Assembly: GCA_947632205.1 (NCBI GenBank)
Contig: CANROK010000001.1
Coordinates: forward strand, 4,682-68,681
DNA: 64,000 bases
Reading direction: 5' to 3'
Source: an uncultured Bacilli bacterium
Lineage (GTDB): Bacteria > Bacillota_I > Bacilli_A > RF39 > UBA660
A program made the translations under genes and the position numbers. Under the pieces are notes generated by a model, which saw only the letters and a list, made by a program, of their open reading frames with translations, had not been told where the DNA came from and did not search any database. Of this stretch, positions 25,975 to 64,000 are shown one piece after another. Position 1 is the first letter of the stretch. Each line of letters opens with the position of its first letter.

Positions 25975-25984
25975 AATTGTAACA

Positions 25985-26105
25985 TCTTATAAAGAGTGAT
26001 GGAGGGACTAGCCCAATGAAGTCACACCAACCTATTTAATTAGGTGGTAATGCTAGAGCTATAAGATAACTTTGAAACATTCAAGTTATCTTGGGTGTTT
26101 TTTTA
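25985..26105 (+). promoter_or_regulatory. SAM-I (S-box) riboswitch with intrinsic terminator
   Basis: It has the P1 pairing tcttat/ataaga, conserved GGAGGGACTAGCCCAATGAAG...CACCAACC...GGTGGTAATGC core blocks, and a terminator agataactt/aagttatct + T8. It lies directly upstream of metK. Confidence 0.85.
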
Positions 26106-26135: not shown

Positions 26136-27158
26136 ATGAAATTATATAGTAACGAAATTGTTTTTAGAGGTCATCCTGATAAAGTGTGTGACCAAATAAG
26201 TGATGCTCTTTTAGATGCTTACTTAAAAGGTGATAAACAAAGTAGATGTGGTATTGAAGTAATGGGAGGTAAAGGTAAAATATTTATTACGGGAGAAGTA
26301 ACAAGTAAAAGTAATATTAATGTTCAAGATATTGTTAAAAGAGTTTTAGAAGATGTTGGTTATGATAGTAATGTAGAAATTATTAACAATTTAGGAGTAC
26401 AAAGTAGTGATATCGCGATGGGTACAAATGATTTAGTTAATGGTGCTGGTGATAATGGCATGATGTTTGGTTATGCTTGTCGGGATAATGATAAATACTT
26501 ACCAACAGCCATGGTAATCTTACAAAAATTTAGTGAAGAGTATGATAATTTAAGAAAACAAGATAAAAGATTCTTACCTGATGGCAAAGCAGAAATTACT
26601 GGTATATATGATGATAATAATCATCTTTCTAAAATAAAAACATTTACAATATGTTATCAAAATACGGAAGAAGAAAGAAGTAAAACTGATCAAATTTTAA
26701 AAAATTTAGTAAATAAAATATGTAAACAATATAATATTGAAGTTTTAGAGTATTTAATTAATCCAACGGGAAGATTTAAAATTGGTGGCTTTATGGGAGA
26801 TGCTGGTCTTACAGGAAGAAAAATAGTTGTTGATAGTTATGAATCTTTTGCACCCGTTGGGGGAGGAGCTTTCTCTGGAAAAGACCCAACTAAAGTTGAT
26901 CGAAGTGGAGCATATAAAGCCAGAAGTTTAGCAGTAAGAGTATTAGAAGAAAATAAAGATATAAATACTTGTGAAATTCAATTATCTTATGCCATAGGAA
27001 AAGAAGAACCACTGGCAATATACATTAAAACCGATAAAGGAGATTTAGAACCAACGAAAGAAATGTATGAAGAATGTAAAGTTAAAAATATAATAAATGA
27101 TTTAAATTTATTAAATATTAGTTATGAAGAAAAAGCTAGATTTGGTCATTTTAGATAA
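26136..27158 (+). CDS. metK: S-adenosylmethionine synthetase (short form, 340 aa)
   Basis: It has GHPDKVCDQISDA, GAGDNGMMFGYA, INPTGRFKIGGFMGDAGLTGRKIVVD, GGGAFSGKD and a C-terminal FGHF motif. Confidence 0.9.
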   Translation: MKLYSNEIVFRGHPDKVCDQISDALLDAYLKGDKQSRCGIEVMGGKGKIFITGEVTSKSNINVQDIVKRVLEDVGYDSNVEIINNLGVQSSDIAMGTNDLVNGAGDNGMMFGYACRDNDKYLPTAMVILQKFSEEYDNLRKQDKRFLPDGKAEITGIYDDNNHLSKIKTFTICYQNTEEERSKTDQILKNLVNKICKQYNIEVLEYLINPTGRFKIGGFMGDAGLTGRKIVVDSYESFAPVGGGAFSGKDPTKVDRSGAYKARSLAVRVLEENKDINTCEIQLSYAIGKEEPLAIYIKTDKGDLEPTKEMYEECKVKNIINDLNLLNISYEEKARFGHFR

Positions 27159-31524: not shown

Positions 31525-31562
31525 AATTAACACTTCCTTTGCCTAAATATTATAAACTAATT

Positions 31563-31945
31563 ATTATTTAATAACAATAAAAAATACGTTATAATTTAGT
31601 AGAGGCGACTAATAAATGAATGCAGTAAGTATAGCTAAAGCTCAAAATAATTTTTATAAATTGGTGTCAGATGTAAATGCCGGATTGGGTCCAATTACGA
31701 TTGTTAATAATAAAGGTAAAAATGCCGTTTTAATATCAGAAAGTGAATGGAAAAATATTGAAGAAACTTTATTTTTATCAAATATACCAGATTATATTGA
31801 AAATATTAATAGTATAAAAAATAACGAAAATTGGAATACTGCTTTAGAATATAAAAGAGATGAAGAATGGTAATTATTAAATAACCGAAAATAAACATGT
31901 TTTTATTTTCTTTTTTTGTCAAAAAATAACGTTTTTAACATATAG
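31563..31945 (+). repeat. copy 1 of a ~375-bp direct repeat (promoter + phd/yefM gene + downstream palindrome)
   Basis: It is near-identical to 32858..33238. The coding part is 100% identical, and the 5' flank has a handful of mismatches. Confidence 0.85.
31616..31873 (+). CDS. Phd/YefM-family type II antitoxin (copy 1), no cognate toxin downstream
   Basis: MNAVSIAKAQNNFYKLV...AVLISESEWKNIEETLFL has the same residue pattern as E. coli YefM (Y.EA..N......V....P..I......AV..S..E....EET..L). There is a TTATAAT -10 and RBS AGAGGCGA. Confidence 0.75.
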   Translation: MNAVSIAKAQNNFYKLVSDVNAGLGPITIVNNKGKNAVLISESEWKNIEETLFLSNIPDYIENINSIKNNENWNTALEYKRDEEW

Positions 31946-32189
31946 ATAAATTTTTATTGACATAATTATAATTTATTATATAATAAATTAACTAATTTAA
32001 TAAATTGTATTATTGCTTTTAAGGATTAAATTAGTTATAATTTTTATAGAAGAAAATTTTTATTTGTTCTTCTACATTTTACGTGATAGAAAAGAGTAAT
32101 TTGTATTAGTTGCTCTTAGTCTAAACATATACTTTGAGCATCTATGAATTAATAGTGCTCATTTTTAATAATTAAATTAAATTAGAAAG

Positions 32190-32372
32190 ATGAAGGAGAA
32201 TATGGAAAACGAAAAAAAAGATTTTAGAAGTAATGAGTTAAAAAAAAGAGTAAAAATTTTAATGGAAAAATCTAAAAAATTGAAGCTTATTAAGCCGCAT
32301 ACATTAGCATTTAAAGAAAATCCAACAGAAGTTGAAGAACATAAAGGAAAATTAATTGCATATAGAAAGTAG
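32190..32372 (+). CDS. small basic protein (56-60 aa), candidate antitoxin partner of the downstream MazF-like gene
   Basis: RBS GAAGGAG is present. The stop is 8 nt before the next gene's ATG. No fold was recognised. Confidence 0.4.
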   Translation: MKENMENEKKDFRSNELKKRVKILMEKSKKLKLIKPHTLAFKENPTEVEEHKGKLIAYRK

Positions 32373-32379
32373 GAGCAAT

Positions 32380-32757
32380 ATGAAATATGAGGTCGGTGAT
32401 ATAGTTTTTGTATCAAAATATAAATACGATAATGGAGAAAAAGGAAAAAATCATTTATTTGTTATAATTGATGAAGAAGAAAATTTGGTTCCTGTTGAAT
32501 ATTTTGGCATGATAGTTTCTTCGAGAATTGAAAAATCAAAAGAAAATTCGAATTTTAAATTTAATGAACCTTTAAGGAAAAATAAAATAAATAAATTAAA
32601 TGTTGATAGCATAGTAAAATGCGATCAAATTTACAAAATACCTTCAAAAAATATTCAATTTAAAATAGGTAGAGTTGATATTGATGATTACATAAGATTT
32701 ATGGATGCTTATAATATAGCTTTGCAAGAAATAGAAGATAAATTACAAACTGTATAA
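32380..32757 (+). CDS. divergent MazF/PemK/EndoA-family endoribonuclease toxin-like protein
   Basis: It aligns with B. subtilis EndoA along its length: GDIVFV~GDVYFA, G-E-G at the same spacing, FVII~LVIQ, SSRIEKSK~TAQIQKAK, DSIVKCDQIYKI~DSVILLEQIRTI and IGRVD~ITHLD. The track start is a TTG; the start is placed at the ATG at 32380 after AGGAG. Confidence 0.6.
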   Translation: MKYEVGDIVFVSKYKYDNGEKGKNHLFVIIDEEENLVPVEYFGMIVSSRIEKSKENSNFKFNEPLRKNKINKLNVDSIVKCDQIYKIPSKNIQFKIGRVDIDDYIRFMDAYNIALQEIEDKLQTV

Positions 32758-32857
32758 TTAAAACAAAAAATCTTTGTGAAAAAAGATTTTTTTAATTCTT
32801 CATAAGTTTTAGTGTTTATTATTTCATTTTCAATTGTGTGTTAAAAGTAGTTTAATA

Positions 32858-33238
32858 ATTATTTAATAACAATAAAAAATACATTATAATTAAGTGGAGG
32901 TGACTAATAAATGAATGCAGTAAGTATAGCTAAAGCTCAAAATAATTTTTATAAATTGGTGTCAGATGTAAATGCCGGATTGGGTCCAATTACGATTGTT
33001 AATAATAAAGGTAAAAATGCCGTTTTAATATCAGAAAGTGAATGGAAAAATATTGAAGAAACTTTATTTTTATCAAATATACCAGATTATATTGAAAATA
33101 TTAATAGTATAAAAAATAACGAAAATTGGAATACTGCTTTAGAATATAAAAGAGATGAAGAATGGTAATTATTAAATAACCGAAAATAAACATGTTTTTA
33201 TTTTCTTTTTTTGTCAAAAAAGCATGTTTTTTAATGAC
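32858..33238 (+). repeat. copy 2 of the ~375-bp direct repeat
   Basis: See copy 1. Confidence 0.85.
32911..33168 (+). CDS. Phd/YefM-family type II antitoxin (copy 2, identical protein)
   Basis: The 85-aa product is identical to 31616..31873. RBS GGAGGTGA is present. Confidence 0.75.
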   Translation: MNAVSIAKAQNNFYKLVSDVNAGLGPITIVNNKGKNAVLISESEWKNIEETLFLSNIPDYIENINSIKNNENWNTALEYKRDEEW

Positions 33239-44545: not shown

Positions 44546-47500
44546 ATGGAAGAAGTAAAAAGATTTTTAAGTAGTATTAATTATACATATACAGATGAAT
44601 TTTCTAATACTGAAATAGAAAAAGTAGTATTAAATAGAGAAAAACAATTATATACTGTTTATTTAAAAAGTAAAAATGTCATTGCTTATGATTTAATATC
44701 TAATTTATTTAGATGTGCTAAAAATGGTATTAATGGTACCGATAATTGTTATATTATTATACATTATGAAAATATAAATGAAGATGATATTATTCATTAT
44801 GTAAAAGAAATATTAGGATCTATTATTTTTGAACATCCTTCCCTTACTGGTTTAGAAAAATGTTTTAAAGAACTTAATCAACATGTTATTAATTTAGAAG
44901 TTGGTAATGAGGCAGAAAAGAAAACATTAAAAAGATTTGAAAAAAAATTAATTCAAGAATTAGAAAATTATGGCATTGGGACATTTGCAGTTAATATTCT
45001 AGTTAATGAAAATTTAAATACAGAAATAAAGAAAGAAATAGAAACATCTAAAGAAGTAGTTTTAGAGAAAAAAGAAGAAAGTCCTGTTTGTTTTGGTATC
45101 CATAAAGATGGAGAAGTTACTTTAATTAAAAATATTATTAGTGAAGTAAAAGGCATAATTATTGAGGGCTATATTTTTGGCGTTGATACTAGTGAAAGAA
45201 AATTTACTAGTGCTAAAACAGGAAGAAGTGGCACAACTTATATTGTCAATTTAAAAGTTAGTGATAAAACGGATAGTTTCTTAGTTAAATTTGTTAGATT
45301 TAATGAAAAAGAATATAAAGCCATATGTCGTGGTTCTAAAGAAGGTAATTGGGTTAGAATTTATGGCGATGTAGAAATGGATAATTATGCTAGACAAATG
45401 GTTATTAATGGTAAGGGTTTAGAAATTATTCCTAGTAAAGATTTAGCAATTAAAGATGAAGAAGAAGAAAAAAGATTTGAATTACATGCTCATACCATGA
45501 TGAGTGCCATGGACGGAGTAATTGATGCTAAAAAATTAGTTAAGTTTGCCAAAAAATTAGGCCATAAAGGTGTAACTGTTACTGACCATGATTGTTTGCA
45601 ATCTTATCCTGATTTGTATCATGCTGTATGTGATATCAATAAAGGAATAGAAAATGAAGAAGATAAGTTTAAAGTTATATATGGTGCTGAGATGAGTATT
45701 GTTAATAATGATAATGAACTCATATTTAATTTAAAAGATTATGATTTATTAAATACTGAATTTGTTGTATTTGATACAGAAACTACGGGCTTTACACCAT
45801 ATAATGATCAAATGATTGAAATTGGAGCCGTTAAAATAAAAAATGGAGTAGTTACAGATAGATTTGATGAACTTATCAATCCTAATCGAAAATTACCACA
45901 AAAAATAGTTGATTTAACTTGTATAACAGATGAAATGTTACAAGATAAAGATAGTGAAGAAAATGTTGTTAAGAGATTTAAAGAGTTTATTAAAGATATG
46001 CCAATGGTAGCCCATAATGCTAAATTTGATATTGGTTTTATGACTGCTGCTTATAATAAATATAATTTAGGCGAGTTTACTAACACTGTAATTGATACGA
46101 TGGGTATGGCAAGAATGCTTTATCCCGAGTGGAAAAACCATAAGTTATCAACACTTGTTAAGAATTTAGAAGTCCCTTGGGATGAAAATTTACACCATCG
46201 TGGTGATTATGATAGTGAAGGTACTGCGATTGCTTTTTATAAAATGTGTAAAGTTTTATCTAATCGTAATATTGAAACGACAACTAAACTTCATGATTCC
46301 ATTGATGAACAAGCATTACTTAAATTTTCAAGACCTTTTCATATGTGTGTTTTAGTTCAAAATAAAGTTGGTTTAAAAAATTTATTTAAATTAATAAGTT
46401 TTGCTAATACTAAATATCTATTTAAAGGTGATCAAGCTAAACTTCCTCGTAATGAACTTAATCTCCATAGGGAGGGCTTATTATTTGGGTCTGGCTGTGT
46501 TAATGGGGAAATATTTAATGCGGCCTTTACTAAAGAAGATGAAGAACTTGCCAAAATGATGCAATATTATGATTATATTGAAGTCCAACCACCAGAGGTT
46601 TATTCCTTTTTAGTGGGAATGGATGATAGTCCTGTTAAAAGTTTAATGGATATATATACACATATTAAAAGAATTGTCAAAGTAGCTGAAGAAGCTGGGG
46701 TATTAGTTTGTGCTACTAGTGATGCTCATCATTTAACAAGAGAAGATAAAATATATCGTGATATTATTGTTAATCAAAGATTTAATGGTAAATTACATCC
46801 TTTAAATAGAAGTGGAATAGTTGTACCAGATATGCATTTTTATACGACAAAAGAAATGCTTGATGCTTTTTCTTTCTTAGGAGAAGAAAAAGCTAAAGAA
46901 ATAGTAGTAACTAATCCAAATATTATTGCATCTAAATGTGAAATAGTTGAAGTTATTATTGAAACGGGTGGTGTTCCTTTTTCACCAAGAATTGAAAATT
47001 CAAAAGAAATAGTTAAAGATATGGTTTATACTAGAGCCAAAGAATGGTATGGTGATCCAATCCCCGAAAATATTAGTGATCGTATTGAACAAGAATTAAA
47101 AGGTATCATTGGTGGTGGCTTTGACGTTATTTATTTAATTGCCCAAAAACTAGTAAAAAAAAGTAATGATGATGGTTTCTTAGTTGGATCCCGTGGTTCA
47201 GTTGGTTCATCTTTTGTTGCGACGATGATGGGTATAACGGAAGTTAATCCTCTTCCAAGTCATTATCGTTGTCCAAAGTGTAAATATAGTATTTTTAAAA
47301 ATGATAAGGGTGAAGATTTAGCCATTGAATATGGTATTGGTTTTGATTTACCAGATAAAGATTGTCCAAAATGTGGGACAAAAATGATTAAAGATGGTGA
47401 AGATATGCCATTTGCTACTTTCCTTGGTTTTAATGCTGATAAAGTACCAGATATTGATCTTAACTTTTCCGATTTAAATCAAGCTGCTGCTCATGAATAT

Positions 47501-48889
47501 ACAAAAGTATTATTTGGAGTAGATAATGTATATAGGGCCGGAACAATTGGAACAGTAGCAGATAAAACAGCTTATGGTTTTGTTAAATATTATTGTGAAG
47601 ATAAAAATATTACGATGCGTAATATTGAAATCGAAAGGTTAGCTCAAGGATGTGTTGGTGTAAAAAGAACAACTGGTCAACATCCTGGTGGTATCGTTGT
47701 TATTCCTGGTTATATGGATGTTTATGATTTTACTCCATATCAATATCCAGCTGAAGATGTTGATGCCAACTGGCGAACTACTCATTTTGATTACCATGCG
47801 ATTGATCAAGATGTATTAAAATTAGATATCTTAGGTCATACTGATCCAACTCAACTTAGAATGTTACAAGATTTAACGGGAATTGATGTTAAAACAGTGC
47901 CCTTTGATGATAAAGAAACAATGGGATTATTCTTATCCCCAGAACCCCTTGGCGTAACAAAAGAACAAATAATGAATGATACTGGTACTCTTGGAGTTCC
48001 GGAATTTGGAACTAACTTTACAATTGGTATGCTTAAAGATACAAAACCAACAACCTTTGCGGAACTTATTAAAATATCAGGACTTTCTCATGGTACTGAT
48101 GTATGGCTTGGTAATGCCCAAGAACTTATTAAAAATAATATTGTTCCTTTTAAAGAAGTTATTGGTTGTCGTGATGATATTATGGTTCATTTAATTCAAT
48201 GTGGTATGGAACCAATAAAAGCGTTTAAAATTATGGAGTTTGTTCGTAAAGGTAAAGCTAGTAAAGAACCAGATGCTTGGGTACAACATAAAAAGACTAT
48301 GGAAGATGCTGGTATACCTGATTGGTATATTGAATCTTGTGGAAAAATTAAATACATGTTTCCAAAAGCCCATGCAGCTGCCTATGTTATGAGTGCTTTT
48401 CGTATTGCTTATTTTAAAGTTCATTATCCTGCTGAATATTATGCTTCCTATTTTTCAACAAGATTTGATATTTTTGAAGTAGAAACAATGATTAATGGAT
48501 ATGATGCAATTAAAGCAAGAATGACAGATATCATAAGTAAAGGTGATGAAGCTACAAGTAGAGAAAAAGAATTATTAGAAACTTTAAAATTGGCCTTAGA
48601 AGCAACGGCCAGAGGATTCAAATTTGGCAATATTGATATTAAGAAAAGTGATGCTAAAAATTTCGTTATAGATGAAGATAAAAAAACACTTATTCATCCA
48701 TTTAGAGCATTAGAAGGTCTAGGTGGAGCAGTTGCTAAACAAATCGTTGATGAAAGAGAAAAGAAAGAATATTTTTGTGTAGAAGATTTTCAAGAGAGAG
48801 GTAAAGTTAATGTTACATCTATGGAAAAATTACGTAACCTAGGAGTATTTAATAATTTACCAGAATCAGCTCAATTAAGTTTATTTTAG
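44546..48889 (+). CDS. polC: PolC-type DNA polymerase III
   Basis: It has a DEDDh exonuclease motif (FVVFDTETTGF), a PHP motif (HAHTMMSAMDG), a Zn-finger (CPKC...CPKC) and a polymerase core. The length is 1447 aa. It starts 2 nt after the dnaE stop. Confidence 0.95.
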   Translation: MEEVKRFLSSINYTYTDEFSNTEIEKVVLNREKQLYTVYLKSKNVIAYDLISNLFRCAKNGINGTDNCYIIIHYENINEDDIIHYVKEILGSIIFEHPSLTGLEKCFKELNQHVINLEVGNEAEKKTLKRFEKKLIQELENYGIGTFAVNILVNENLNTEIKKEIETSKEVVLEKKEESPVCFGIHKDGEVTLIKNIISEVKGIIIEGYIFGVDTSERKFTSAKTGRSGTTYIVNLKVSDKTDSFLVKFVRFNEKEYKAICRGSKEGNWVRIYGDVEMDNYARQMVINGKGLEIIPSKDLAIKDEEEEKRFELHAHTMMSAMDGVIDAKKLVKFAKKLGHKGVTVTDHDCLQSYPDLYHAVCDINKGIENEEDKFKVIYGAEMSIVNNDNELIFNLKDYDLLNTEFVVFDTETTGFTPYNDQMIEIGAVKIKNGVVTDRFDELINPNRKLPQKIVDLTCITDEMLQDKDSEENVVKRFKEFIKDMPMVAHNAKFDIGFMTAAYNKYNLGEFTNTVIDTMGMARMLYPEWKNHKLSTLVKNLEVPWDENLHHRGDYDSEGTAIAFYKMCKVLSNRNIETTTKLHDSIDEQALLKFSRPFHMCVLVQNKVGLKNLFKLISFANTKYLFKGDQAKLPRNELNLHREGLLFGSGCVNGEIFNAAFTKEDEELAKMMQYYDYIEVQPPEVYSFLVGMDDSPVKSLMDIYTHIKRIVKVAEEAGVLVCATSDAHHLTREDKIYRDIIVNQRFNGKLHPLNRSGIVVPDMHFYTTKEMLDAFSFLGEEKAKEIVVTNPNIIASKCEIVEVIIETGGVPFSPRIENSKEIVKDMVYTRAKEWYGDPIPENISDRIEQELKGIIGGGFDVIYLIAQKLVKKSNDDGFLVGSRGSVGSSFVATMMGITEVNPLPSHYRCPKCKYSIFKNDKGEDLAIEYGIGFDLPDKDCPKCGTKMIKDGEDMPFATFLGFNADKVPDIDLNFSDLNQAAAHEYTKVLFGVDNVYRAGTIGTVADKTAYGFVKYYCEDKNITMRNIEIERLAQGCVGVKRTTGQHPGGIVVIPGYMDVYDFTPYQYPAEDVDANWRTTHFDYHAIDQDVLKLDILGHTDPTQLRMLQDLTGIDVKTVPFDDKETMGLFLSPEPLGVTKEQIMNDTGTLGVPEFGTNFTIGMLKDTKPTTFAELIKISGLSHGTDVWLGNAQELIKNNIVPFKEVIGCRDDIMVHLIQCGMEPIKAFKIMEFVRKGKASKEPDAWVQHKKTMEDAGIPDWYIESCGKIKYMFPKAHAAAYVMSAFRIAYFKVHYPAEYYASYFSTRFDIFEVETMINGYDAIKARMTDIISKGDEATSREKELLETLKLALEATARGFKFGNIDIKKSDAKNFVIDEDKKTLIHPFRALEGLGGAVAKQIVDEREKKEYFCVEDFQERGKVNVTSMEKLRNLGVFNNLPESAQLSLF

Positions 48890-48890
48890 G

Positions 48891-48915
48891 AAGGTCATAT
48901 TGACCTTTTTTCTTT
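48891..48915 (+). terminator. intrinsic terminator aggtca-tat-tgacct + T-run
   Basis: The hairpin is followed by TTTTTT right after polC. Confidence 0.6.
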
Positions 48916-49034
48916 TTTTAAGTCAAATTATTTTTCAACTTTTTTTATTTTTATGGTTATTTTATTTTACAATTACTAAGTTAATTTAATCTGCAAATCT
49001 ATACTTGATTTCACACATTTCAAATTAAAAATTA

Positions 49035-49062
49035 TTGACACTCGGGGGGGGTATTATATAAT
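49035..49062 (+). promoter_or_regulatory. consensus promoter TTGACA-16-TATAAT with a G8 homopolymer in the spacer
   Basis: The sequence TTGACActcGGGGGGGGtattaTATAAT is identical to 63534..63561. The ATG lies 28 nt downstream of the -10, with RBS AAAGAGGAAAA. Confidence 0.6.
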
Positions 49063-49089
49063 TAAAATATATAAAATAAAGAGGAAAAT

Positions 49090-51588
49090 ATGTATAATAA
49101 GAGATATAAGAAAAGTAATAAAAAGATATATGGAATGTGTACGATAATAGTATTGCTAATATATACAATATCAATATGTTATTCAACATTACAACAACAA
49201 CTAGAAATAAATGGCTTAGTAAAAGTAAGAAGACAAGAGAATATAAGAGTAACAGGAGTAGAAGTAGAAAGTAGTACAAAAGCCACATCAAATTGGGAAG
49301 AATATGATGTAAAGAATGTAAGTGCAGGAATAACTTTACCAAATGCAGAATCAAGTATAACATATAAAGTAAAAGTAACAAACTTTGGAAATGTTGATAT
49401 GGGAATATATAATATCGATGGATTAGATAATAGATTAACATATACAATAGAAGGATATGAATTAAAAGATAAAATAGAAAAAAGCGGAAATAAAAGAGAA
49501 TTTAAAATAACAATTAAATATAAAGATGGAAGTTATGATGCAAGTAATACTGATTATAATATCTTATTAAATTTTGAATTTAGAGCATATTATAAAGTAA
49601 CATATAAGAATTTTCCAAGTGGAACAGATAATTTACCAAAAGAAGTAATGGAAAGAGACAAATTAATTGTAGATTTAAAAGATTATCAAAATGCAAGATA
49701 TAAGATAACAGAAAATGAAATAACTTTACCAAGTGATAGATATACATATATCAATAATGAATTAACAATATCATCAGTTGAAGGAGATATAGAGATAACA
49801 TATAAGAAGATACCAGATATAGAATTAGTATTAAGGGATAATGATAGTAATAAAACATTAAGTGAAGATATCCAAGCAGGGATGTATAGATATCAAGGAT
49901 CATATGAACAAGTTAAAAATAACTATATATGTTTTGGAACAAGTAGCAAAGATGAATGTTTAAACAATAAAGATAAGTATATGTACCGAATAATAGGAAT
50001 AACAGAAGATGGACAATTAGAACTAATCAAAATGACAGCATTAAATGATACAGGAGTACAATGGAATAGTGTAGATCAAAGTACATGGAATACAGATGTA
50101 AATAAAAATGAAAAAATAGTTGATGCTGATGTACCATGGAGTAAAAGTGATTTATATAAAAGACTAAATGGCTTATCAGATGATAACATATTTATAAATA
50201 GTACTAGTTATGATTATATGCAAAAAGATTCAATATGGTATAACAAAATAGCTGATACAAATTGGTTAAGTGGCCAAATTTATACAACTGGACAAGTTAG
50301 TTATGTTGATTTGTTTAAACTACCAACGATATATGAAATAGAATCTGGGCAAAATAAATCTGCTTATGCTGAAGAAGCAAGTCCATATTACTATAATGGT
50401 GGAAATACAAATATAGTAGTTAATACAGAGCCATACATGACAAGAAGAACTAAAGATAGTGTAACTTGTGAAAGATATGATGAGATAAGTAAAGTAACAT
50501 GCTATAAAAACATTAATGAAAAATTTAATGATAAAGTAACATCAAAAATTGGCTTAATGCATGCATATGAATTTGATTATTCAGTAGAAAAGAATGGAAA
50601 AGATTGCTTAAGAAGTACAATATGGAATGGTAATGAACAAACAGGAACATATAAAGATGGATTGGATGGCGAAAAATGTAAAGCAAGTTGGATGCATATA
50701 AGTAATAATGATACAACAGTTACTGGTTATGCTGTGCATGAATGGACTATGTCTCGAGCTGGATTTATTTATGCAAACGACCATTTCGATGACTGGTACA
50801 TTCGTTCAAAGGGATATGTAAATAGTTGGGATGTTAGGGTTGGAACCCTTTCTACTCGTCCAGTATTCTACTTAACAACTGATATTATCTTAAAAGAAGA
50901 AACAACAGGAACAAAAGATAATCCGTATATTATAGATATGTATGAAATGAATGGTTATATTGATGATTTAAGTGGAAATAATAATTATGGAATAGCTAAT
51001 GTTGCTTCTTGGGATAGTGATGGTATAACTACTAGTGATAAACAAACGAGAGGTTTTATAAATTGTGGACTTGAAAATCATGATTTTGAAAATACCATAA
51101 CAATGATAACAAGAGTAAAATTTAATGATTTAGTTTCCGGACAATATTATTTTGGCAATTGGCAAGGTGCTGGTGGTGGATTATATTTATCTAATTCTTC
51201 TTTAAAATTTGAACAACATATAGGTGGTCATTACGAAAAAGTAGAAAGTAACTATAATATTAGTTTAAATACATACTATACAATTGTTGGTGTTTATAAT
51301 GGTAGTGAAATGAGTATATATATTGATGGGCAAAAAATAGGAAGTAGCGTAAATGGTAATATAAAACCTTGTAATATGCCAATATTATTAGGTGCAAATC
51401 CAGAAGTCAATATGCCGTATTATAACTATTCTTATACCACTTTTACAGATGCTTTAATATTTGATACAGCATTAAGTGATGCAGAAATACAAAAAGATTT
51501 TAGTAATGAAATAGATAAAGATAATGTAATAAAAAACTATGTTAACAACCAAGATAAAAAATTACTACTTTATTATAGATTTGTATAA
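49090..51588 (+). CDS. large secreted/surface protein (832 aa): basic N-terminus + signal-anchor helix, conserved beta-rich N-domain, C-terminal LamG/concanavalin-like domain
   Basis: The first ~140 aa and the 5' UTR are paralogous to 63589..64000. The C-terminal ~200 aa resemble Laminin_G_3-type lectin folds by recollection. The composition is secreted-type (N/T/Y/G-rich). Confidence 0.55.
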   Translation: MYNKRYKKSNKKIYGMCTIIVLLIYTISICYSTLQQQLEINGLVKVRRQENIRVTGVEVESSTKATSNWEEYDVKNVSAGITLPNAESSITYKVKVTNFGNVDMGIYNIDGLDNRLTYTIEGYELKDKIEKSGNKREFKITIKYKDGSYDASNTDYNILLNFEFRAYYKVTYKNFPSGTDNLPKEVMERDKLIVDLKDYQNARYKITENEITLPSDRYTYINNELTISSVEGDIEITYKKIPDIELVLRDNDSNKTLSEDIQAGMYRYQGSYEQVKNNYICFGTSSKDECLNNKDKYMYRIIGITEDGQLELIKMTALNDTGVQWNSVDQSTWNTDVNKNEKIVDADVPWSKSDLYKRLNGLSDDNIFINSTSYDYMQKDSIWYNKIADTNWLSGQIYTTGQVSYVDLFKLPTIYEIESGQNKSAYAEEASPYYYNGGNTNIVVNTEPYMTRRTKDSVTCERYDEISKVTCYKNINEKFNDKVTSKIGLMHAYEFDYSVEKNGKDCLRSTIWNGNEQTGTYKDGLDGEKCKASWMHISNNDTTVTGYAVHEWTMSRAGFIYANDHFDDWYIRSKGYVNSWDVRVGTLSTRPVFYLTTDIILKEETTGTKDNPYIIDMYEMNGYIDDLSGNNNYGIANVASWDSDGITTSDKQTRGFINCGLENHDFENTITMITRVKFNDLVSGQYYFGNWQGAGGGLYLSNSSLKFEQHIGGHYEKVESNYNISLNTYYTIVGVYNGSEMSIYIDGQKIGSSVNGNIKPCNMPILLGANPEVNMPYYNYSYTTFTDALIFDTALSDAEIQKDFSNEIDKDNVIKNYVNNQDKKLLLYYRFV

Positions 51589-56743: not shown

Positions 56744-56798
56744 TGCTTCTTCTTTTTATGAAAATAAAATCGAAAGGGTGAAAAAAGGGGGGTGAAAT

Positions 56799-56827
56799 TT
56801 GACATTTTTTTACAAATATGCTATACT
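56799..56827 (+). promoter_or_regulatory. promoter TTGACA-17-TATACT
   Basis: It has a consensus -35 with 17-nt spacing, preceded by an A-tract/G6 region. Confidence 0.55.
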
Positions 56828-56930: not shown

Positions 56931-57464
56931 ATGAAGAACAAAATAATATCTTCAATTATAGCTTCAGTAGTAGCCATTACAACAATAACAAGTGTAGCAT
57001 GTACAACTTTAAATAATCAAGATAATTTTCAAGTAATATCAAATTCAAATATGGTTTTATATGATGATAATATGGATTATATAAGTACTATTAATGATTA
57101 TATAACTAATGACAAAGAATTAAGTGATATGGAGTATAAAAAAGCCGTATATATGTATTTATATAATACAAATGTATCAATGGATGAATATAAGAGTGAA
57201 TTACATACATTACTTTTATGTAGTATTAATCCAAGTTGTGTTGATAATTTTGATACTTTGTTTGTTAATTTAATTAATGCTTTAAATAATAAAAATTTAA
57301 ATGTTCAAGTTAGAGAAGAATTATCTCGTGTTTATCTACCATTAGCGGCATATTTTCATGAGTTAGAATGTAATGATCCAAGTCATCTTAAAAATTATAA
57401 TCCGGATATTAATGTTTATGAATGTGATACATTAAAAGAAGAATATAGAAAGAGAAGCAGATAA
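56931..57464 (+). CDS. secreted Cys-containing hypothetical protein (signal peptide)
   Basis: It has an N-terminal signal sequence MKNKIISSIIASVVAITTITSVA and RBS AAAGGGGAAA. Confidence 0.5.
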   Translation: MKNKIISSIIASVVAITTITSVACTTLNNQDNFQVISNSNMVLYDDNMDYISTINDYITNDKELSDMEYKKAVYMYLYNTNVSMDEYKSELHTLLLCSINPSCVDNFDTLFVNLINALNNKNLNVQVREELSRVYLPLAAYFHELECNDPSHLKNYNPDINVYECDTLKEEYRKRSR

Positions 57465-60326: not shown

Positions 60327-62060
60327 ATGAAGAATAAATTATTAATTAAATTTTTTTTATTTTTTCTATTATTCATATTTAATATGAATATTTGCCATGC
60401 GACAATTTATCGTGCTAAACTTGTGGGAAATGATGTTAATTTAAGAAGTGGACCAGGTACTAATTATTCTTCTCTTAAAACATTAAGTAAAGATTCAGAG
60501 TATACAATGGTTAATGATACTCTTTATCCTGATGAAGGTGGCTGTGGTAATGGTTGGTATAAAATTTATTATGAAGCCAGTGCTACAGGTTATATCTGTA
60601 GTAATTATATTACAGTTTCAACTTTAGTTTTTAAAGAAGAAGCCACTACTGAGTGTGAAATGGCTTTAAAAGAAGCTGGTTTTCCGGCATCTTATTGGCC
60701 TGGCTTATGTAATTTAAAAGAAATGCATCCTACATGGGAATTTAGCCCTGTTTTTACTGGTTTAGATTGGAGTAATGCTGTTGATTCGGAAAGTGAATGT
60801 GGAATAAGTTATATAGCTAGTAGTATTCCTACTAATATAGATAATACTTGTAAAAATCCCTATACTAAAACATGGTATCCAGCATCTTCAACCGCGGTTG
60901 CTTATTATATGGATCCTCGAAATTGGTTTTCAGAAAATACGATTTTTCAATTTGAATATTTAAGATATAGTGATTTACTCAAAGATAAATATATTGATGC
61001 TACTTCTAATATTCTTAAAAATGCTGAATTTTATAAATATCATTTAAATATTGGTAATAATCTTGGTGAAATTATTAATGAAGCGGGATTAAAGGCAAAT
61101 ATAAGTCCTATTTTTGTTGGTGGAAGAATACTACAAGAACTGGGAAATGCCACTTCTTTATATAATCTTTATAGTGGTGTTTATGAAGAAAGTGAAGGAC
61201 AATTTAAAGGATATTATAATTTTTATAATTTTGGAGTAACAGATAGTTGTGCCACTAGTAGGGGTACAACTATATGTGGACTTGAATATGCAAAGAAAAA
61301 TAATTGGAATAGCGTTTATGATGCTATATATGGAGGAGCTAATCAAATTGCATCATCATATATCGCTGTTGGTCAATATAATGGTTATTTACAAAAATTT
61401 AATGTTGTACCTACTCAAGCATCAAAACTATATGGTCATCAATATATGACTAACATTGCTGCTCCATCAAGTGAAGCTAAGACTACATATAATTCATATA
61501 AAAATTTAGGAGTTTTAGAAAGTGCTTTTGTTTTTTATATACCAATTTATAATAATATGGATGATTCTTTTTATACAGAAGGTAATGGGGCAGTTGATAC
61601 ACCAGATGATAATGAAAAATCAACATTAGATATTAATACTATAATTGTAAGTAGTGGTTATAAATATCAAAGTGGAACTATTTCCGGTATTGCTCAAAAT
61701 ACAGATATTAAAACAGTAAAGAGTAATTTAGAAAGTATTGCGGGAGCTGGTAATGTTTTGATTAAAACTAAAGATGATCAATTAGTAACTGATGGTTTAA
61801 TTGGAACAGGATTTAAAATAACTATTAAAAATCAAACTTTAGAAGAAACTTTAATGGTGGTAATACATGGTGATACTTCAGGAGATGGAATAGTAAATGC
61901 CCTAGATTTATTACAAGTTCAAAAAAATATTTTAGGCACTTATACATTAAATGATGTTTATCTAAATGCGGGTGATACTTCGAAAGATGGAATAGTAAAT
62001 GCCCTAGATTTATTACAAATTCAAAAAAGTATATTAGGAACATATACAATTGAATATTAG
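60327..62060 (+). CDS. secreted cell-wall hydrolase-like protein: signal peptide, SH3b-like domain, glucosaminidase (GH73)-like domain, C-terminal dockerin (2 repeats)
   Basis: It has a signal peptide and an SH3_3-like region (YRAKLVGNDVNLRSGPGT...GWYKIYY). A glucosaminidase-like block follows (ILQELGN...YNFYNFGV...YAKKNNW..YLQKFN). Two dockerin repeats follow, GDTSGDGIVNALDLLQVQKNILG and GDTSKDGIVNALDLLQIQKSILG (Ca-binding D-x-S-x-D-G-x-V-N-x-x-D). Confidence 0.6.
   Translation: MKNKLLIKFFLFFLLFIFNMNICHATIYRAKLVGNDVNLRSGPGTNYSSLKTLSKDSEYTMVNDTLYPDEGGCGNGWYKIYYEASATGYICSNYITVSTLVFKEEATTECEMALKEAGFPASYWPGLCNLKEMHPTWEFSPVFTGLDWSNAVDSESECGISYIASSIPTNIDNTCKNPYTKTWYPASSTAVAYYMDPRNWFSENTIFQFEYLRYSDLLKDKYIDATSNILKNAEFYKYHLNIGNNLGEIINEAGLKANISPIFVGGRILQELGNATSLYNLYSGVYEESEGQFKGYYNFYNFGVTDSCATSRGTTICGLEYAKKNNWNSVYDAIYGGANQIASSYIAVGQYNGYLQKFNVVPTQASKLYGHQYMTNIAAPSSEAKTTYNSYKNLGVLESAFVFYIPIYNNMDDSFYTEGNGAVDTPDDNEKSTLDINTIIVSSGYKYQSGTISGIAQNTDIKTVKSNLESIAGAGNVLIKTKDDQLVTDGLIGTGFKITIKNQTLEETLMVVIHGDTSGDGIVNALDLLQVQKNILGTYTLNDVYLNAGDTSKDGIVNALDLLQIQKSILGTYTIEY
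61869..62052 (+). repeat. tandem duplication (period ~102 nt) encoding the two dockerin calcium-binding segments
   Basis: The stretch ggtgatacttc..gatggaatagtaaatgccctagatttattacaa is repeated with a few substitutions. Confidence 0.8.
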
Positions 62061-62074
62061 AAGGAGGATAAATA

Positions 62075-63475
62075 ATGAAAAAAGTTTTAACAACAATAAT
62101 ATTATTTTTAGCTTTCATACCTATAATTGTAAATGCTACATCTGGTAAAATATCAGTAAGTAGTACTAGTACAGTAGTGGTAGGAAATAAAGTTACAGTA
62201 ACAGTTACTTTAAGTGGTAGTGATATTGGTAGTTGGCAAATGACTTTAAATTATGATAAAAGTTATTTACAACTAACAAATAGTTCAGCTGAAGCTGGTG
62301 GTACAGTTATGGCTTCTTCTGTTACTAAACCAATAACTTCTAAAAAATATACTTTTACATTTAAAACATTAAAAAAAGGAAGTACAACAGTATCTGTAAA
62401 AAGTTATGAAGCATATGCTTTTTCTGATATGCAAGAGATTAATCTTACCAGTGGTAGTAAAACTATTAAAATAATTACGCAAGAAGAACTTGAAGCTAGT
62501 TATTCTAAAGATAATAATTTAAAAAGTTTAAGTGTTGAGGGATATGAACTTGATAAAACTTTTGATAAAAATACTTTAGATTATAGTGTTAATGTTAATG
62601 AAGGAACAACAAGTATTAAAATAAATGCAACAGCAAATGATAAAAAAGCATCAATAAATGGTGATGGCGTAGTTAATGTTACTGCTGGTACTAATGTTTT
62701 TAAAATAGTTGTCAGGGCAGAAAATGGTAGTGAAAAAATATATAATTTGACAATTAATGTTATTGATCAAAATCCTATAAATGTTACTATTAATAATAAT
62801 AATTATACAGTTATTAAATTAAGAGATAATTTTGAATGTTCTGGTTCTTTTAGTGAAAGTACAGTAAAAATAAATGATATTGATATTCCATCATGTTATA
62901 ATGAAAATCTAAATTATCAATTAGTAGGATTAAAACTTAGTGATGGAACAATAGAAAGTTATATATATGAAAATAATAATTATAAAAAATATGTTGAAGT
63001 CATTGGAACAAGTTTAAAATTAATAATTAATGATTATAATGGAGAAATAGAAGGACTTACAAAATATGTAGAAGAAATAGATGGAACAGAATATAATGTC
63101 TTTAAAAAGAATGCTAACTCAAAATATTATATAGTATATGGTACTAATATAGAAAATGGTAAGAAAGATTTTTATTCTTATGATACTATTAGTAAAACAT
63201 TTAGTTTATATGATAAAGAGGAAGCAAAAGAAAATAATAATTTAAATAATTTATATTTATATGTAATTATTGCTTTTGGTAGTTGTTTATTTCTAGCCAT
63301 CATTTGTGTTATATCTTTATTAAATAAAATTAGTCGTATTAAAAAATTAAATTTACAAATGCAAAAAGATATTGTGAAAAAAGAAGAGATAATTAAACAA
63401 GCAGAAGAAGAAAAAGAACAAGTAAATAATTCAAAAAAAGAAAAGAAAACTACTAAGAAAAAGAAAAAGCAATAA
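62075..63475 (+). CDS. membrane-anchored cohesin-domain protein with cadherin-like beta-sandwich domain and C-terminal TM anchor + K/E-rich cytoplasmic tail
   Basis: It has a signal peptide and a cohesin-like pattern (KVTVTVTLSGSDIGSWQMTLNYDKSYLQL...G). A cadherin-like block follows (LKSLSVEGYELDKTFDKNTLDYSVNV...NVFKIVVRAENGSEKIYNLTIN). The C-terminal TM helix is LYLYVIIAFGSCLFLAIICVISLL. RBS AAGGAGG is present. Confidence 0.55.
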   Translation: MKKVLTTIILFLAFIPIIVNATSGKISVSSTSTVVVGNKVTVTVTLSGSDIGSWQMTLNYDKSYLQLTNSSAEAGGTVMASSVTKPITSKKYTFTFKTLKKGSTTVSVKSYEAYAFSDMQEINLTSGSKTIKIITQEELEASYSKDNNLKSLSVEGYELDKTFDKNTLDYSVNVNEGTTSIKINATANDKKASINGDGVVNVTAGTNVFKIVVRAENGSEKIYNLTINVIDQNPINVTINNNNYTVIKLRDNFECSGSFSESTVKINDIDIPSCYNENLNYQLVGLKLSDGTIESYIYENNNYKKYVEVIGTSLKLIINDYNGEIEGLTKYVEEIDGTEYNVFKKNANSKYYIVYGTNIENGKKDFYSYDTISKTFSLYDKEEAKENNNLNNLYLYVIIAFGSCLFLAIICVISLLNKISRIKKLNLQMQKDIVKKEEIIKQAEEEKEQVNNSKKEKKTTKKKKKQ

Positions 63476-63491
63476 AATATACGACTACAAA

Positions 63492-63521
63492 ATGTGCGAA
63501 TTTTTGTTCGTACATTTTTTT
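63492..63521 (+). terminator. intrinsic terminator atgtgcgaa/ttcgtacat (one G-U) + T7
   Basis: A 9-bp stem is followed by a T-run. Confidence 0.6.
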
Positions 63522-63533
63522 GACTCAAAATTA

Positions 63534-63561
63534 TTGACACTCGGGGGGGGTATTATATAAT
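63534..63561 (+). promoter_or_regulatory. second copy of the TTGACA-ctc-G8-...TATAAT promoter
   Basis: It is identical to 49035..49062. Confidence 0.6.
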
Positions 63562-63588: not shown

Positions 63589-64000
63589 ATGTATAATAAG
63601 AGATATAAGAAAAGTAATAAAAAGATATATGGAATGTGTACGATAATAGTAGTGTTAATATATACAATATCAATATGTTATTCAACATTACAACAACAAC
63701 TAGAAATAAATGGCTTAGTAAAAGTAAGAAGACAAGAGAATATAAGAGTAACAGGAGTAGTAGTAGATAGTAGTATAAATGCCACATCAAATTGGGAAGA
63801 ATATGATGTAAAGAATGTAAGTGCTGGAATAAGTTTACCAAATGAAGATTCAAGTATAACATATAATGTAAAAGTAACAAACTTTGGAAATGTTGATATG
63901 GGAATATATAATATTGATGGTTTAGATGATAGATTAACATATACAATAACAGATTATACATTAAAAGAGAAAATAGAAAAAAGTGGACATAAAAAAGAAT
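63589..64000 (+). CDS. paralog of the 49090 surface protein (3' truncated by window end)
   Basis: The first ~137 aa are about 90% identical to 49090..51588 (MYNKRYKKSNKKIYGMCTIIV.LIYTISICYSTLQQQLEINGLVKVRRQENIRVTGV...). The 5' UTR is identical. Confidence 0.55.
   Translation, partial: MYNKRYKKSNKKIYGMCTIIVVLIYTISICYSTLQQQLEINGLVKVRRQENIRVTGVVVDSSINATSNWEEYDVKNVSAGISLPNEDSSITYNVKVTNFGNVDMGIYNIDGLDDRLTYTITDYTLKEKIEKSGHKKE

Follow-up and report, generated by a model that had tools for sequence, protein, structure and literature searches.

A 64,000-nucleotide (nt) stretch of contig CANROK010000001.1 from an uncultured Bacilli bacterium (hereafter the window) harbours two identical copies of a 28-bp element, TTGACA-CTC-G8-TATTA-TATAAT, at positions 49035-49062 (copy A) and 63534-63561 (copy B). 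This cassette, which is shared by related rabbit-gut bacteria, is best explained as a promoter of the housekeeping-sigma (sigma-A/sigma-70) type, with the run of G residues as its putative length-variable core. We give an even chance to the proposal that it is a slipped-strand contingency promoter of the same kind as those of porA, tp0126 and the vlp genes. In such a promoter, strand slippage and mispairing within the G tract at replication would add or remove G residues and shift the -35/-10 spacing (15, 16, 17 ... nt), so that transcription of each gene would be raised, lowered or silenced independently, in a heritable and reversible manner. Several defining features of the class are found here, namely an uninterrupted slippable repeat (a homopolymer of about 7-8 residues or more), its place in a predicted promoter core, over-representation and association with surface-protein genes. 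We infer that the cassette is probably an active promoter in these organisms, that its G tract is likely to be hypermutable and that changes in tract length would alter expression.

Two identical G8 promoters in the window

The initial annotation had placed an uninterrupted G8 run between a perfect TTGACA and a perfect TATAAT at both loci, and the layout is exactly so. It had also deemed such a run unlikely by chance, which our counts bear out: copies A and B contain the only runs of at least seven G residues in the window, where 0.36 are expected from shuffled sequences, and none of 100 shuffles matched the observed count. The G+C content of the window is 19-32%, and that of the genomes is approximately 25%. 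Perfect TTGACA-N15-19-TATAAT arrangements occur three times in the window, versus 0.45 expected; the third, at 31957, is devoid of a G tract. Allowing up to three mismatches, we found no match to the 28-mer in the window besides copies A and B. TATTAT was considered as an alternative -10 hexamer and rejected because the spacer would then be just 11 nt long.

Identity between the two copies begins merely 6 nt 5' of the -35 hexamer and is complete over approximately 126 nt, covering the 5' untranslated region (5' UTR) and the first ~37 codons, after which the sequences gradually diverge. The Shine-Dalgarno sequence and the ATG of the copy A gene are located 18-28 nt 3' of the predicted promoter core, and transcription is expected to start near position 49069, approximately 7 nt past TATAAT. 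The predicted terminator of polC, 115 nt ahead of copy A, shields this promoter from read-through, and a hairpin upstream of copy B looks like a terminator as well.

The cassette is shared by rabbit-gut Bacilli

The initial annotation had suggested searching for the pattern in the rest of the genome. When genomes were scanned, one for each species, the pattern was matched 20 times, all in six metagenome-assembled genomes (MAGs) of rabbit-gut origin named "uncultured Bacilli bacterium". We collected extra copies and variants from the contigs of homologous proteins and then removed redundancy, which yielded 27 distinct loci in seven genomes (the window and six species-level rabbit-gut MAGs). The cassette is clade-wide, more than a local two-copy duplication. 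All 31 runs of at least seven G residues in the ~200 kb of clade DNA fetched lie inside promoter cassettes, with none elsewhere and none in coding regions, an over-representation relative to genome composition of the kind that characterizes contingency promoters. The tract is kept across six or more species and is uninterrupted at 26 of the 27 loci, the exception being L003, whose G9AGG can arguably be read as a G12 tract interrupted once.

Conservation amounts to ~2 bits per position over the 28-mer, drops to ~0.4 bits (background) directly 5' of the -35 hexamer, where the flanks are unrelated between loci, and declines slowly downstream, indicating that the element itself has been maintained and arguing against a large recent duplication. 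The loci are dispersed, beside unrelated housekeeping genes, and contigs often end at the cassette because it is part of a ~50-bp repeat. Such contig ends, at many loci, and the short-read metagenome assemblies used throughout might point to a sequencing or assembly artefact, for instance the poly-G read ends of two-colour chemistry. This is extremely improbable, given that the identical perfect -35/-10 context is present in seven genomes obtained from independent samples with independent assemblers, also in mid-contig positions as in the window, and that the repeat accounts for the contig breaks.

The pattern TTGACACTCGGGG-N0-12-TATTATATAAT had no match in JGI metagenome contigs or in IMG/VR viral contigs, so the cassette is not obviously phage-borne. 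A BLAST search with positions 49000-49300 of the window against plasmids and phages also returned no match, and the window DNA is chromosomal. Neither the 28-bp element nor the rabbit MAG clade was described in the literature that we searched. The host, an uncultured gut Firmicute, carries genes for Spo0A and for a spore protein (Cse60).

Additional elements were observed next to some copies. At L018 (1700-2330, minus strand), an insertion sequence (IS) element coding for a 575-residue DDE transposase, in convergent orientation, is inserted exactly 3' of the TATAAT of a G8 promoter, and an IS200-like TnpA gene is present just upstream of the insertion. An RNA gene was considered 3' of this copy and rejected, as Rfam gave no match and the sequence directly past TATAAT is that of the IS element. 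At L010, L011, L012 and L020, which represent two subfamilies, a hairpin or palindrome without a T run abuts the -35 hexamer, within 25 nt upstream, and shows largely compensatory changes between loci (GCCATGTAAT..ATTACATGG, GCCATATAAT..ATTATATGG and GCCACATAAT..ATTATGTAG).

Spacer length varies between loci

Spacers are 16 nt long at 19 loci, 15 nt at four, 17 nt at three and 20 nt at one. The 17-nt spacers contain CTC-G9 (L009 and L010 in bin22, L017 in bin12), the 20-nt spacer contains CTC-G9AGG (L003), and the 15-nt spacers, found at three bin44 loci and one bin22 locus, contain C-C-G8. The bin22 genome alone has spacers of 15, 16, 16, 17, 17 and 20 nt. Among these, the cassettes of L034 (CTC-G9) and L048 (CC-G8) differ by 2 nt and are followed by near-identical sequences, indicating that they are recent copies. 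All length differences fall within CTC-Gn; no other spacer base differs among the 27 loci, and the sole hexamer change is a CATAAT -10 in L033. A fixed sequence of variable length is the signature that would be expected of a length switch and speaks against a rigid site for protein binding.

The ON/OFF phase switch proposed in the initial annotation is in keeping with the architecture of the element, its non-random occurrence and its length variation between loci, but less so with the fact that G8 and G9 both give spacings in the usually active 16-18-nt range. In the initial annotation, 16 nt had been taken as the optimal spacing, while the canonical optimum is 17 nt (PMC7864442), so that G8 is one short of it and G9 corresponds to it. 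As 16 and 17 nt are both permissive, the switch may work as a rheostat instead of a strict ON/OFF device, the gain or loss of one G tuning expression, and the clearly weak states would be those with spacers of 15 nt or of at least 18 nt.

A number of observations weigh against a length switch. Exactly G8 is found in 22 of the 27 tracts, whereas the spread of tract lengths is usually wider in classical contingency loci; G8 is near the lower limit of mutable tract lengths, and promoters with spacers of 16 or 17 nt are normally active, particularly when their hexamers are perfect. The length differences (G8 versus G9) were seen between loci, while three loci present in two or three independent, near-identical assemblies are all G8. 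The latter comparison is a weak one because these strains are 99.8-100% identical and represented by consensus sequences only. Between near-identical assemblies of one strain (L028 3028 versus L030), the sole indel is T7/T6 in the T run of a terminator, indicating that homopolymer length differences do surface between same-strain assemblies, though not at the G8 tracts. The 15-nt variants have lost the T of CTC and are not products of homopolymer slippage. The distinction between G8 and G9 is based on short-read MAGs of low coverage (about 4-10x). Finally, CTC and TATTA are invariant bar this T loss, an invariance for which a pure spacing model has no need, making a sequence-specific role of the spacer possible.

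If the spacer had such a role, the cassette could be the static promoter of a secretome regulon comprising surface proteins, TasA-like fibres and SipW, in which a dedicated regulator, or RNA polymerase itself, would recognize the spacer sequence or a rigid G/C-tract geometry, with no switching by length. We find this rather unlikely, if the most credible of the alternatives. It fits with the invariance of the eight non-G spacer positions in 27 loci and seven genomes, bar the T missing at the four CC-G8 loci, between unrelated upstream flanks, and with the strong predominance of G8, but it leaves the homopolymer nature of the site unexplained, and the coexistence of 15-, 16-, 17- and 20-nt spacers, even in one genome, should not be tolerated by a fixed-site reader. 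A promoter common to SipW and its likely substrates would make functional sense in a regulon, as these proteins are functionally linked, and relatives of the family are under the control of repressors predicted to act inside the spacer; nevertheless, the present spacer is non-palindromic, and no linked gene is a candidate for such a regulator at the loci, whose neighbours are unrelated housekeeping genes. Also consistent with a static promoter, TATTATATAAT is enriched in the window (seven occurrences versus two expected) and is present in the G-less perfect promoter at 31957, which suggests that the 3' bases of the spacer may reflect a preference of RNA polymerase.

Cassette genes code for exported proteins

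All readable products encoded downstream of the cassettes begin with a Lys/Arg-rich stretch and then have a strongly hydrophobic segment, i.e., a predicted N-terminal export signal or anchor. They form several subfamilies with different N-termini, most of which share the core GGMYRYQG...DKYMYRIIG...RPVFYL, and they include an unannotated family of surface proteins, TasA-like proteins and a SipW-type signal peptidase.

In the window, copies A and B precede genes for paralogous proteins with predicted export signals, as the initial annotation had reported. The copy A gene codes for a protein with a Lys/Arg-rich N-terminus and a hydrophobic helix at residues 10-40, beta-sandwich domains and a C-terminal Laminin_G_3 lectin-like domain. 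Its core of ~380 residues (GMYRYQG...RPVFYL) is modelled with confidence and has no match in Pfam or NCBIfam. The copy B product is 88% identical to it over the 137 visible codons, and the 5' UTR and signal region of the two genes are identical. This family comprises more than 230 homologues, with several paralogues per genome.

The G9 promoter of L017 precedes a gene for a SipW-type (archaeal/ER-type) signal peptidase, itself followed by a TasA-like open reading frame (ORF). The peptidase scores 94.8 bits against TIGR02228, above the curated cut-off of 51.85, and 113.8 bits against the equivalog model of Bacillus subtilis SipW, under the cut-off of 190. The following ORF, of 195 residues, has ...VGGTYARYTD... 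past its hydrophobic segment, and the L002 and L009 products contain TFAYF and TYAYF motifs; these features were identified by eye, with no model reaching significance.

Relatives of the family have repressor-type promoters

Homologues of the family whose genes lack the tract come from other metagenomes and hosts (L024-L027, L036-L047), from relatives in the rabbit gut (L032, L035) and also from within the same genome (L031 and the 10001 gene of L048). A small divergent gene of the HTH_3 or Arc type accompanies many of them, together with a palindrome that lies inside the promoter spacer or abuts it, such as TAGACAAAATTTGTCTA between the TTGACT and TAAAAT of L032. One homologue 81% identical to a G9-driven protein has a palindromic operator instead of the G tract. 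In 12 distant loci of the family, from other metagenomes, no G or C tracts were found in the promoters, indicating that the device is clade-specific and not family-wide.

The operator- and regulator-bearing promoters of tractless relatives suggest that switchable expression may be the norm for this protein family and that the G tract may represent an alternative control device at the same promoter position. Repressor-controlled (XRE/HTH_3 or Arc-type) promoters serve the same exported family, the products being as much as 81-86% identical to paralogues driven by G tracts, and like the cassette they have their control element in or at the promoter spacer. They differ from it in that an operator of palindromic sequence and a neighbouring, divergent regulator gene take the place of the homopolymer, both types being present in bin22, and their control is presumably responsive, whereas that of the G tract would be stochastic. 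In the clade, a portable G-tract promoter appears to have been added to, or to have replaced, repressor control.

At two loci (L034, 9928-10137; L048, 17100-17319), a G-tract promoter and 16 remaining codons of a family gene (MEV...) lie 5' of a different family gene. The latter has kept a degenerate palindrome promoter, resulting in tandem promoters, and L034 also has a divergent HTH_3 gene. These remnants indicate that the cassette, when it moves, takes along a short stretch of a gene's 5' end. A purely passive spread could account for this, the cassette and gene 5' end being propagated by duplication, recombination or gene conversion and the G tract being a functionless founder accident. 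The complete identity of the window copies over ~126 nt at the 5' end, with divergence deeper in the gene, and the repeat-like contig breaks at the cassette are in line with that explanation. We nevertheless judge it quite improbable: at ~25% G+C, decay would be expected of a G8 that is not under selection, but 26 of the 27 tracts are uninterrupted in six or more species. Furthermore, the GnT motif has been reported as a hotspot of T-to-G mutation (PMC12344412), and the T that follows the tract is unchanged at all loci. The 5' boundary at the -35 hexamer is sharp and identical, with unrelated upstream flanks, which also points to long-term selection on the core and not to recent copying.

Comparison with known contingency loci

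Repeat-driven phase variation has been documented mainly in pathogens, including Neisseria, Haemophilus, Campylobacter, Helicobacter, Treponema and Mycoplasma, and in gut commensals most work on phase variation has dealt with invertible promoters and methyltransferases. In Campylobacter and Helicobacter, G/C homopolymers are strongly over-represented relative to the AT-rich genome and are tied to genes for surface structures, but unlike the promoter tracts described here they are mostly found in coding regions, where frameshifts cause ON/OFF switching.

Closer to the slipped-strand promoter that we favour, G8-G11 promoter tracts, some of them in -35/-10 spacers, differ in length within isolates, with effects on transcription, in Treponema pallidum tp0126 and tprL and in Neisseria meningitidis porA; for tprL, a near-clonal isolate showed 81% G9 and 18.6% G8, with a range of 7-11 (PMC7864442). 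These systems resemble the cassette in that poly-G tracts of ~8-11 nt are located in the promoter, between the -35 and -10 hexamers for porA and tp0126, in that surface proteins are controlled and, for tpr, in that a paralogous family is concerned. Expression is best at a spacing of 17 nt (PMC7864442). Their hosts are Gram-negative or spirochaete pathogens in which heterogeneity within isolates is documented, while the present hosts are uncultured gut Firmicutes with heterogeneity only between loci. The invariant bases flanking the tract are a feature of the present cassette, unlike porA, tp0126 and tpr.

Spacer indels also change transcription of the Mycoplasma hyorhinis vlp, Mycoplasma arthritidis maa2 and Mycoplasma mycoides vmm genes, in which a repeat tract between the -35 and -10 hexamers, i.e., at the same position as here, sets transcription (PMC2268961). 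The vlp genes form a surface-protein multigene family in which each gene has a highly conserved promoter, 5' UTR and signal region, as observed here, and their low-GC hosts are related to the present clade within the Bacilli in the broad sense. By contrast, the vlp, maa2 and vmm tracts consist of poly-A or TA repeats instead of poly-G. The vlp genes are clustered and code for lipoproteins, while the cassette genes are dispersed beside housekeeping genes and code for large, multi-domain anchored proteins. Switching has been demonstrated for vlp and is predicted from sequence for the cassette.

Genomic context of the window copies

The first G8 gene follows dnaE and polC and precedes dnaB/dnaD-like, dnaI-like, recA, rny and bacA genes; after bacA come the genes for a dockerin/SH3 protein and a cadherin-like protein, and then the second G8 gene (Table 1). 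Among the window genes scanned, none codes for MutS or MutL, which is uninformative for a 64-kb piece.

Table 1. Coordinates of the two G8 promoters and of adjoining features in the window
Feature	Position	Strand	Basis
Terminator-like hairpin and T run, ends polC (44546-48889)	48888-48920	+	terminator scan; PolC domains
-35 hexamer TTGACA, copy A	49035-49040	+	
Spacer CTC-GGGGGGGG-TATTA, 16 nt, copy A	49041-49056	+	
G8 homopolymer, candidate slippage tract, copy A	49044-49051	+	
-10 hexamer TATAAT, copy A	49057-49062	+	
Shine-Dalgarno AGAGGA, 4 nt 5' of ATG, copy A	49080-49085	+	read from sequence
ATG, copy A gene	49090	+	
832-residue protein, export/anchor signal	49090-51588	+	
Hairpin GTGCGAA...TTCGTAC and T run, 3' of cadherin-like gene (62075-63475)	63494-63521	+	by eye; not reported by terminator scan
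28-bp promoter, copy B (-35, 63534-63539; spacer, 63540-63555; -10, 63556-63561)	63534-63561	+	
G8 homopolymer, copy B	63543-63550	+	
ATG, copy B gene	63589	+	
5' part of paralogue of 49090 gene, 137 codons, runs off window	63589-64000	+	

The dockerin/SH3 region (60327-63475) codes for a protein with SH3_3 and type I dockerin domains, with an internal 78-nt repeat (61869/61971), followed by the cadherin-like beta-sandwich protein. A type I dockerin is unexpected in gut Bacilli with ~25% G+C, and no cohesin partner is in view.

The G-less perfect promoter (TTGACA-N16-TATAAT, 31957-31984), with the same TATTATATAAT 3' half, belongs to an insert in the region 31558-33170. This insert is flanked by a duplicated 85-residue ORF (31616-31873 and 32911-33168; 98% DNA identity) that resembles Phd/YefM-type antitoxins by eye. 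The promoter is followed by a ~200-nt leader and by small ORFs at 32190-32372 and 32356-32757, the latter PemK/MazF-like by eye. A G6 run (56787-56804) is located 6 nt 5' of a TTGACA-17-TATACT promoter (56799-56827), ahead of an ORF without Pfam match (56931-57464). Elsewhere in the window, an S-adenosylmethionine (SAM) riboswitch (RF00162, 66.9 bits) at 25984-26067 lies upstream of the ORF 26136-27158.

Implications for gut Bacilli

In its broadest form, the slipped-strand proposal would be that a portable, clade-specific cassette has displaced repressor/operator control over a secretome of about five to eight or more surface proteins per genome, TasA-like fibres and SipW, each unit being set by slippage of its G tract. 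The result would be surface variation that is both combinatorial and heritable, in a commensal Firmicute of the gut with sporulation-type genes, and the first poly-G promoter phasome outside pathogens and Mollicutes, with invariant flanks hinting at an additional, sequence-specific reader. Taken as a whole, this scenario is speculative and on balance unlikely. More generally, a conserved poly-G promoter cassette in control of a family of uncharacterized surface proteins would bring contingency loci to a new lineage, that of uncultured, very AT-rich gut Bacilli, and it would provide a simple sequence signature with which to find such genes in MAGs. The unannotated family with the ~380-residue core domain would then be likely to represent surface antigens exposed to the host or to phages.

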